39,299 nucleotides of DNA from Escherichia phage phiHAO2-2, in the sequence record PP079212.1, one strand, 5' to 3'. Below are positions 5,358 through 5,418 of this stretch, piece by piece. A model generated the notes under the pieces. The model saw only the letters and a list, made by a program, of their open reading frames with translations. It was not told the origin of the DNA and made no database searches. The position numbers and the translations under genes were made by a program. Within the stretch, counting starts at the first letter, position 1. Every line of letters starts with the position of its first letter.

Positions 5358-5375
5358 ACTATCACTATAGGATTA
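5353..5375 (+). promoter_or_regulatory. Phage RNAP promoter (phi1.1-like)
   Basis: CCTAAACTATCACTATAGGATTA; +1 G at 5370. Confidence 0.75.
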
Positions 5376-5418
5376 GACTCAAGGTCATGACTCAAAGTCG
5401 TGGCCTTCATGATTAACC
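5371..5418 (+). promoter_or_regulatory. Putative RNase III processing hairpin (R1.1-like)
   Basis: GATTAGACTCAAGGTCATG...GTGGCCTTCATGATTAA forms an imperfect hairpin with AAGGTCA pairing TGGCCTT. The same element recurs at 12508 and 36190. Resembles the T7 R1.1 motif as recalled. Confidence 0.45.

Follow-up and report, generated by a model that had tools for sequence, protein, structure and literature searches.

Homologues of the T7 and T3 RNase III processing sites predicted in the K1F-like phage phiHAO2-2

Escherichia phage phiHAO2-2 carries hairpins which, on the grounds of homology in sequence and structure, appear to be the counterparts, in a K1F-like phage, of the well-known signals for mRNA processing by RNase III in phages T7 and T3. 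The DNA analysed, referred to here as the window, is the whole 39,299 nt stretch of sequence record PP079212.1, read on one strand. We put the probability that these elements serve the polycistronic mRNAs of the phage as RNase III processing signals at about 0.9, with homology as the ground for expecting cutting.

Results

Three near-identical elements had been reported in a preliminary description of the window at 5371-5418, 12508-12554 and 36190-36239, and all three are indeed present there. The core AAGGTCAT-N{6,16}-GTGGCCTT has exactly three matches, all on the + strand (5381-5407, 12519-12543 and 36202-36228), against 0.00 expected from 100 dinucleotide-preserving shuffles. The spacer between AAGGTCAT and GTGGCCTT is 9-11 nt in the window copies, which fits the 8-12 nt given earlier in length but not as a loop, as it holds two to three further base pairs and the true loops are of 3-5 nt. 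The flanks differ among the copies and are complementary inside each copy, as had been observed: UAGG-a-UUAG pairs with UUAA-c-CCUA (5368-5421), GGUCUAG with UUAGACU (12508-12556), and GUGUUAG with GUUAACAC (36191-36243). RNA folding, which had been suggested as a check, gave -20.2, -20.8 and -23.4 kcal/mol on the + strand for the elements at 5368, 12506 and 36189 (z -4.1, -2.5 and -3.9), as compared with z -1.7, -0.2 and -1.7 for the corresponding - strand folds. This strand asymmetry is due to G.U pairs in the conserved stem and points to RNA transcribed from the + strand, not to a DNA palindrome.

The suggested resemblance to RNase III sites turned out to be homology in both sequence and structure, to the stem_loop features of T3 (record AJ318471, in which ten stem-loops are annotated as "RNase III recognition site") and to the R-site loci of T7. 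RNase III sites are not among the features shown for the T7 records NC_001604 and V01146. The T7 loci were located from R-site coordinates which we take to be those of Dunn and Studier (1983). At the loci given by these presumed coordinates the same motif is found in T7 at R0.3, R0.5, R1, R1.1, R1.3, R4.7 and R18.5, with six of the seven coordinates falling into one alignment column, at the U of CCUUUAU|GA. A further presumed T7 site, "R0.7 at 1997", was discarded; there is no hairpin there. The exact core occurs only once in T7, at 5861-5884; this is the R1.1 locus, between phi1.1A (5848) and phi1.1B (5923) and 5' of gene 1.1. An alignment of 17 sequences was composed of the three window elements, seven of the annotated T3 stem-loops and the seven T7 R-site loci; its consensus is ACTCAAGGTCAT..GTGGCCTTTATGATTA, and the RNase III site core CUCAAGGUC...GUGGCCUU(U/C)AUGAUU is present in the aligned window sites.

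A covariance model built from the 17-sequence alignment and run over the window with filters off detected five sites, all on the + strand, with E values from 2e-14 to 1e-5. The three already noted are canonical RNase III-type hairpins on the + strand at 5368-5426 in the R1.1 position (59.0 bits, E 5e-13), at 12506-12562 in the R4.7 position (62.8 bits, E 5e-14) and at 36189-36247 in the R18.5 position (64.3 bits, E 2e-14). In T3 the model gave eight hits, all at annotated RNase III stem-loops, and all eight of the presumed canonical T7 coordinates lie inside hits of the model; R6.5, which was outside the training set and has a promoter inside its apical loop, was found by the model in T3 as well as in T7. 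Nothing further was hit in these two phages, and none of seven genomes gave a hit on the minus strand. A scan of the whole window against all 4227 Rfam families at the gathering threshold gave 0 matches, and this absence does not speak against the RNase III-site assignment.

Two of the five sites had been missed in the preliminary description. The canonical hairpin at 599-655 (+ strand, R0.3 position, 45.8 bits, E 1.7e-9) has a diverged core (ACAGGUCGUUA/UAGCGGCCUG) and folds at -21.8 kcal/mol with z -4.5 on the + strand and z -0.2 on the - strand; its orthologue in K1F is at 1031-1088. The other, at 1199-1256 (+ strand, R0.5 position, 31.5 bits, E 1e-5), is a diverged hairpin with an enlarged internal loop and one C.A mismatch in the lower stem, which folds with z -3.7 on the + strand and z -0.6 on the - strand and has orthologues in K1F (1767-1824), GA2A (1944-2001) and phiHAO1-1 (1886-1944). 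The assignment of 1199-1256 is the least certain of the five.

The genome belongs to the K1F group (Kayfunavirus) of T7-like phages. With an 8-kb stretch as query, 269 phage records were matched, and the top-ranking ones were K1F-group phages, phiHAO1-1 and vB_EcoP_F at ~95% identity among them. The long ORFs are all on the + strand in T7 gene order, with PHROGs used for the flanking genes, and the promoter core AACTATCACTATAGG has 11 promoter-like matches on the + strand of the window, a count which leaves out a twelfth match with three mismatches. All five sites lie between genes on the transcribed strand and occupy the R0.3, R0.5, R1.1, R4.7 and R18.5 positions; for the three hairpins first noted, the correspondence to R1.1, R4.7 and R18.5 that had been claimed is correct, R4.7 being in the T3 arrangement. 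The site at 599-655 ends 16 nt upstream of an ocr-like gene 0.3 (start 671), and 1199-1256 follows a 66-aa ORF and precedes small early ORFs, in the 0.4/0.5 gap. The site at 5368-5426 adjoins a phage RNA polymerase promoter core AACTATCACTATAGG (5357-5371, + strand), the last bases of which belong to the hairpin as the 5' base of its lower stem, and is followed by a 59-aa ORF in the position of gene 1.1 and then by a homologue of gene 1.2 (dGTPase inhibitor). The site at 12506-12562 has a 54-aa ORF on its upstream side (stop 12506-12508) and the DNA polymerase gene directly downstream (start 12573), and 36189-36247 lies between the small terminase gene 18 (stop 36188-36190) and the Rz-like spanin gene 18.5 (start 36292).

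Both the MFE and the centroid folds show a lower stem, an internal loop and an upper stem at all five sites. The hairpin is of ~20 bp and consists of a variable lower stem of ~7 bp, an asymmetric internal loop with ACUC on the 5' side and (U/C)AUGA on the 3' side, and a conserved upper stem of 10-11 bp (AAGGUCAU.../...GUGGCCUU). In the hairpin at 5368-5426 the lower stem has 8 bp plus one bulge, and the upper stem beyond the asymmetric internal loop has 11 bp (AAGGUCAUGAC/GUCGUGGCCUU). The consensus fold of the 17 sequences has a 7-bp lower stem, a 4/5-nt internal loop and a 10-bp upper stem, with compensatory changes in 10 of its 17 pairs. A scan of IMG/VR for CAAGGTC-N{8,20}-GTGGCCTT returned many contigs, and matches to the full structure were found almost only in contigs of ~38-45 kb, which is the size of T7-like genomes. 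In an alignment of 41 sites from IMG/VR T7-like contigs and K1F, 96.2% of the cells are paired as compared with 77.8% after shuffling, a pairing somewhat inflated by the fitting of this alignment to the model; none of 500 shuffles reached the observed values, changes on both sides occur in 13 of the 17 pairs, and in slid registers the pairing falls to 27-48%. Since the margin over the shuffles is large despite the model-fitted alignment, the earlier argument from complementary flanks, that there is selection on RNA structure, is sound and is borne out by covariation. Conserved U.G pairs are present in the upper stem in both the 17- and the 41-sequence alignments, and because of these the fold is specific to the + strand and acts as RNA.

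Two atypical promoter-associated sites, one R3.8-like and one R13-like, are possibly also present on the + strand. The candidate R3.8-type site at 10345-10371 (fold z -3.8) is an 11-bp hairpin followed by UUUGUUCGCAUU and located where transcripts from the 10333 promoter begin; its 3' flank TTTGTTCGCATT is common to the T7 R3.8 locus, and T3 annotates the same kind of hairpin under R3.8. In the candidate R13-type site at 25045-25094 (fold z -3.7) a perfect 12-bp stem (AAGGGCCUAUAG/CUAUAGGCCCUU) encloses the promoter before gene 13, so that both arms are present only in read-through transcripts from upstream; R13 of T7 and T3 likewise encloses promoter phi13. The former is kept in GA2A and phiHAO1-1 and the latter in K1F, GA2A and phiHAO1-1, in both cases without variation from which covariation could be judged, and the two candidates are assigned by analogy with the T7 and T3 sites. 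Canonical R6.5 with a promoter in the loop, a form which the model detects in T7, T3 and KP32, is absent from the window; the promoter at 16834 is enclosed by a weak stem of 8 bp (z -2.2).

Related motifs had also been listed at 1837, 20672 and about 232. The half-motif sequences do exist, at 1837 (GGACTCAAGGT), 20687 (AGACTCAAGGT, exact) and 224 (AGACTTAAGGT), but they lack the GTGGCCTT partner and gave no model hit at E<=10 with filters off, and none was retained as a member of the family. The motif at 1837, which follows the promoter before the RNA polymerase gene and is kept in K1F, has no 3' arm and resembles only the promoter and the 5' half of the 5368 element; the region 1836-1911 folds no better than shuffles (z -0.17). 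The motif at 20687 is located inside a hairpin of a different type (GGGAGACC...GGUUUCCC) in the gene-10 leader, and that at 224 is part of a left-end repeat array upstream of a sigma-70-like promoter (459-488).

Discussion

The + strand transcript of each element folds into the three-part hairpin. By homology to T7 R1.1 and its relatives, the quasi-continuous helix of this hairpin would be bound by host RNase III, and the enzyme would cut one strand only, on the 3' side of the internal loop, the cut being confined to a single strand because of that loop. When aligned to the presumed T7 coordinates, the sites have predicted cuts after U639, A1240, U5410, U12546 and U36231. The upstream mRNA should then retain the upper stem-loop as its 3' end and thus be shielded from 3'-to-5' exonucleases, and the downstream mRNA should receive a defined 5'-monophosphate end 26-60 nt 5' of the start codon; the leaders counted from the cuts predicted at 639, 1240, 5410, 12546 and 36231 are of 31, 30, 35, 26 and 60 nt, that of site 1199-1256 being measured to a 29-aa ORF at 1271. 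Cleavage of R1.1 RNA takes place at one bond and gives fragments of 47 and 13 nt (PMC4858673), and PMC1540722 describes internal loops as confining cleavage to one strand and leaving 3' hairpins that are protective against 3'-to-5' exonucleases. No ORF of the size of the gp0.7 kinase is present in the early region, where the ORFs between 671 and 1912 are all of at most 110 aa, and a stimulation of RNase III by the kinase, as described for T7, probably does not occur in this phage.

According to PMC1540722, the optimal distal box is UA/UG, with the U.G stringently required, and a minimal substrate needs at least about 11 bp from the cut to the loop. With the box positions mapped onto the window sites by inference from that text, the U.G pair of the distal box is present in the sites at 5368, 12506, 36189 and 1199-1256 and is replaced by G-C in 599-655; the first pair of the box is U-A at 12506 and 36189, G-C at 5368 and C-G at 1199. 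The upper helices of the window sites have 10-11 bp as against the 11 bp from cut to loop of that minimal substrate. The proximal side is AAGG/CCUU in the sites at 5368, 12506 and 36189, identical to R1.1, and has diverged to CAGG/CCUG in 599-655 and to GAGG/CCUC in 1199-1256.

These boxes bear on whether the hairpins might be RNA structures that are not cut, serving as stability or translation elements or as binding sites for RNase III or another protein, which we regard as improbable. R1.1 variants which are competent for binding yet resistant to cleavage do exist, as PMC1540722 reports, and the internal loop is diverged in site 1199-1256; for this site the divergence together with the mismatch (31.5 bits) makes it conceivable that it could bind RNase III without being cut. 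However, the three elements with the core keep the exact proximal box of R1.1 and the U.G distal-box pair, which favour cleavage, and their closest homologues, R0.5 and R1.1 of T7, are portable and efficiently processed sites (PMC3643576).

Stable, GC-containing hairpins between genes on the transcribed strand could also be read as transcription terminators or pause sites of the host or the phage RNA polymerase. This we consider very unlikely: no U-run follows any of them (3' flanks AACCCUAAUAAAC, UAGACUAAAACGG and AACACUAACUAGUGG), a terminator scan of 1-2000 gave none at 599 or 1199, the homologous elements of T3 and T7 are annotated as processing sites, and termination at these points would be harmful, since essential genes that have no separate promoter, the DNA polymerase gene at 12573 for example, follow directly. 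An action as DNA, be it as replication origin, recombination or packaging signal or protein-binding palindrome, is scarcely credible even though the T7 R1.1 region overlaps the primary origin area, the T3 record puts an origin beside promoter phi1.05 and the hairpin copies coincide with cassette boundaries between relatives, because the minus strand has A.C mismatches in place of the conserved U.G pairs and folds poorly, the compensatory changes keep RNA pairing and not DNA sequence, every copy in seven genomes is on the transcribed strand, and a role in recombination would be a by-product of the repeats, not a selected function.

Read as RNase III processing signals, the window sites share much with those of T7. 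R1.1 of T7, which is the standard substrate for RNase III, carries the exact AAGGTCAT...GTGGCCTT core and the core of T7 R0.5 is nearly identical to that of 12506-12562; the three-part architecture of lower stem, asymmetric internal loop and 10-11 bp upper stem is shared, as are the strand and the intergenic positions relative to genes 0.3, 1.1 and 18.5, and at R18.5 of T7 the cut lies 60 nt from the start of gene 18.5, the same spacing as for the cut predicted in the window. The lower stems and apical loops differ in sequence between the two phages. The model detects five canonical sites in the window and eight in T7, the window being without canonical R1, R1.3 and R6.5. The R4.7-type site of the window is placed directly before the polymerase gene since there is no gene 4.7, whereas in T7 it precedes gene 4.7. 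Cleavage has been shown for the T7 homologues (PMC4858673, PMC3643576) and is predicted for the window sites.

The arrangement also shares a number of features with that of T3, in which consensus and structure are the same as in the window sites. The T3 promoter phi1.1 (5984-6006) abuts R1.1 (6003-6053) as the window promoter at 5357-5371 abuts the hairpin at 5368-5426, R4.7 immediately precedes gene 5, and R18.5 lies between genes 18 and 18.5. R1, R1.3 and a canonical R6.5 whose loop holds a promoter are further sites of T3, and none of them is found in the window; where T3 has R1, the window has a phage promoter directly before gene 1 and then the non-folding half-motif.

The same five sites are present in K1F in the same order, at 1031, 1767, 5567, 12854 and 36447. 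The R18.5 region of phiHAO1-1 is 100% identical to that of the window, and this region matches 717 phage records across the Studiervirinae. K1F, GA2A and phiHAO1-1 each have one extra hairpin in the early region, which flanks additional DNA that the window lacks. The GenBank records of K1F, GA2A and phiHAO1-1 are without annotation of these hairpins, the R18.5 hairpin is annotated in none of the 60 matches listed of the 717, and a literature search, the scope of which did not extend to the K1F genome paper, returned no paper joining RNase III with Kayfunavirus. The sites are thus unannotated members of the textbook T7-group RNase III family and are ordinary for this phage group, and they leave the understanding of RNase III or of T7-like phages unchanged. 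Their value is mainly one of annotation: five, possibly seven, predicted sites would define the mature mRNA ends of a K1F-like phage. The K1F group has a reduced set (R0.3, R0.5, R1.1, R4.7 and R18.5) without R1, R1.3 and canonical R6.5, which is of use for engineering K1F-type therapeutic phages or for modelling their gene expression.

When the window was compared with K1F, GA2A and phiHAO1-1 by pairwise BLAST, mosaic breakpoints fell at four of the five hairpins. By a rough estimate the breakpoints are not significantly closer to hairpins than under an intergenic-only null, and only two cases of hybrid hairpins carry weight, in each of which two hairpins that enclose extra DNA in a relative correspond to one hybrid hairpin in the window. 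For 1199-1256 the upstream flank is that of the phiHAO1-1 hairpin at 1465-1519, and the core and downstream flank are those of the hairpin at 1886-1944, with gene gp04 of phiHAO1-1 sitting between the two; likewise, 599-655 is a hybrid of the K1F hairpins at 708-771 (upstream flank) and 1031-1088 (core and downstream flank). Such hybrids are the product expected from recombination between directly repeated hairpins. It is a tentative proposal, with the odds somewhat against it, that K1F-like phages acquire or lose early-gene cassettes by homologous recombination between hairpin copies, with the directly repeated hairpin DNA as the junction; gain of a module composed of a hairpin plus a gene would give the identical hybrid pattern. 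If the proposal were true, the hairpin DNA would have a second role besides RNA processing. In GA2A an extra gene (13130-14068) lies exactly between the R4.7 hairpin and gene 5.

Additional observations

A perfect phage promoter AACTATCACTATAGG is found within 1824-1911, directly 5' of the phage RNA polymerase gene (start 1912), in the place of the RNase III site R1 of T7 and T3, and is kept in K1F; the leader of the gene (1824-1911) holds repeated AGACTTTAAGTGAAAGAC-like units. This promoter could lead to positive autoregulation of the RNA polymerase gene. A 155-aa ORF (4890-5357; phrog_8103, function unknown) separates this gene from promoter phi1.1 and is missing from K1F and phiHAO1-1, with a similarity breakpoint at 5350, 7 nt before the promoter core.

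A small hydrophobic ORF of 29 aa (MNIGYWVCLAPVIWMIGYGIYDCIKRKSL, 1271-1360) starts 30 nt 3' of the cut predicted at 1199-1256, and since this spacing is typical of the other sites the ORF may encode a real small membrane protein.

The transcript of the capsid gene (gene 10) begins with a stable hairpin at 20672-20702 (GGGAGACCaagagacagactcaaGGUUUCCC), which is analogous to the T7 phi10 leader and to R3.8-type hairpins and has the exact 11-mer AGACTCAAGGT in its loop and 3' arm. With up to two mismatches allowed, 66 matches to AGACTCAAGGT were counted over both strands of the window, as compared with an average of 15 and a maximum of 66 for sampled genome 11-mers. Codon-order shuffles gave 27, and on each strand the hits in coding sequence show a strong bias to a single reading frame; the excess is therefore largely attributable to codon and dipeptide usage together with noncoding copies, and not to a dispersed functional motif.

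No terminal direct repeat of at least 40 nt was found in the window, so that the terminal redundancy has seemingly been collapsed in the assembly. At the left end, before the early promoter, short imperfect repeats (ACCTACAGTC-like units, with AGACTTAAGGTCT closing the series) form an array at 100-240, and this array resembles those adjoining the terminal repeats of T7-like genomes.
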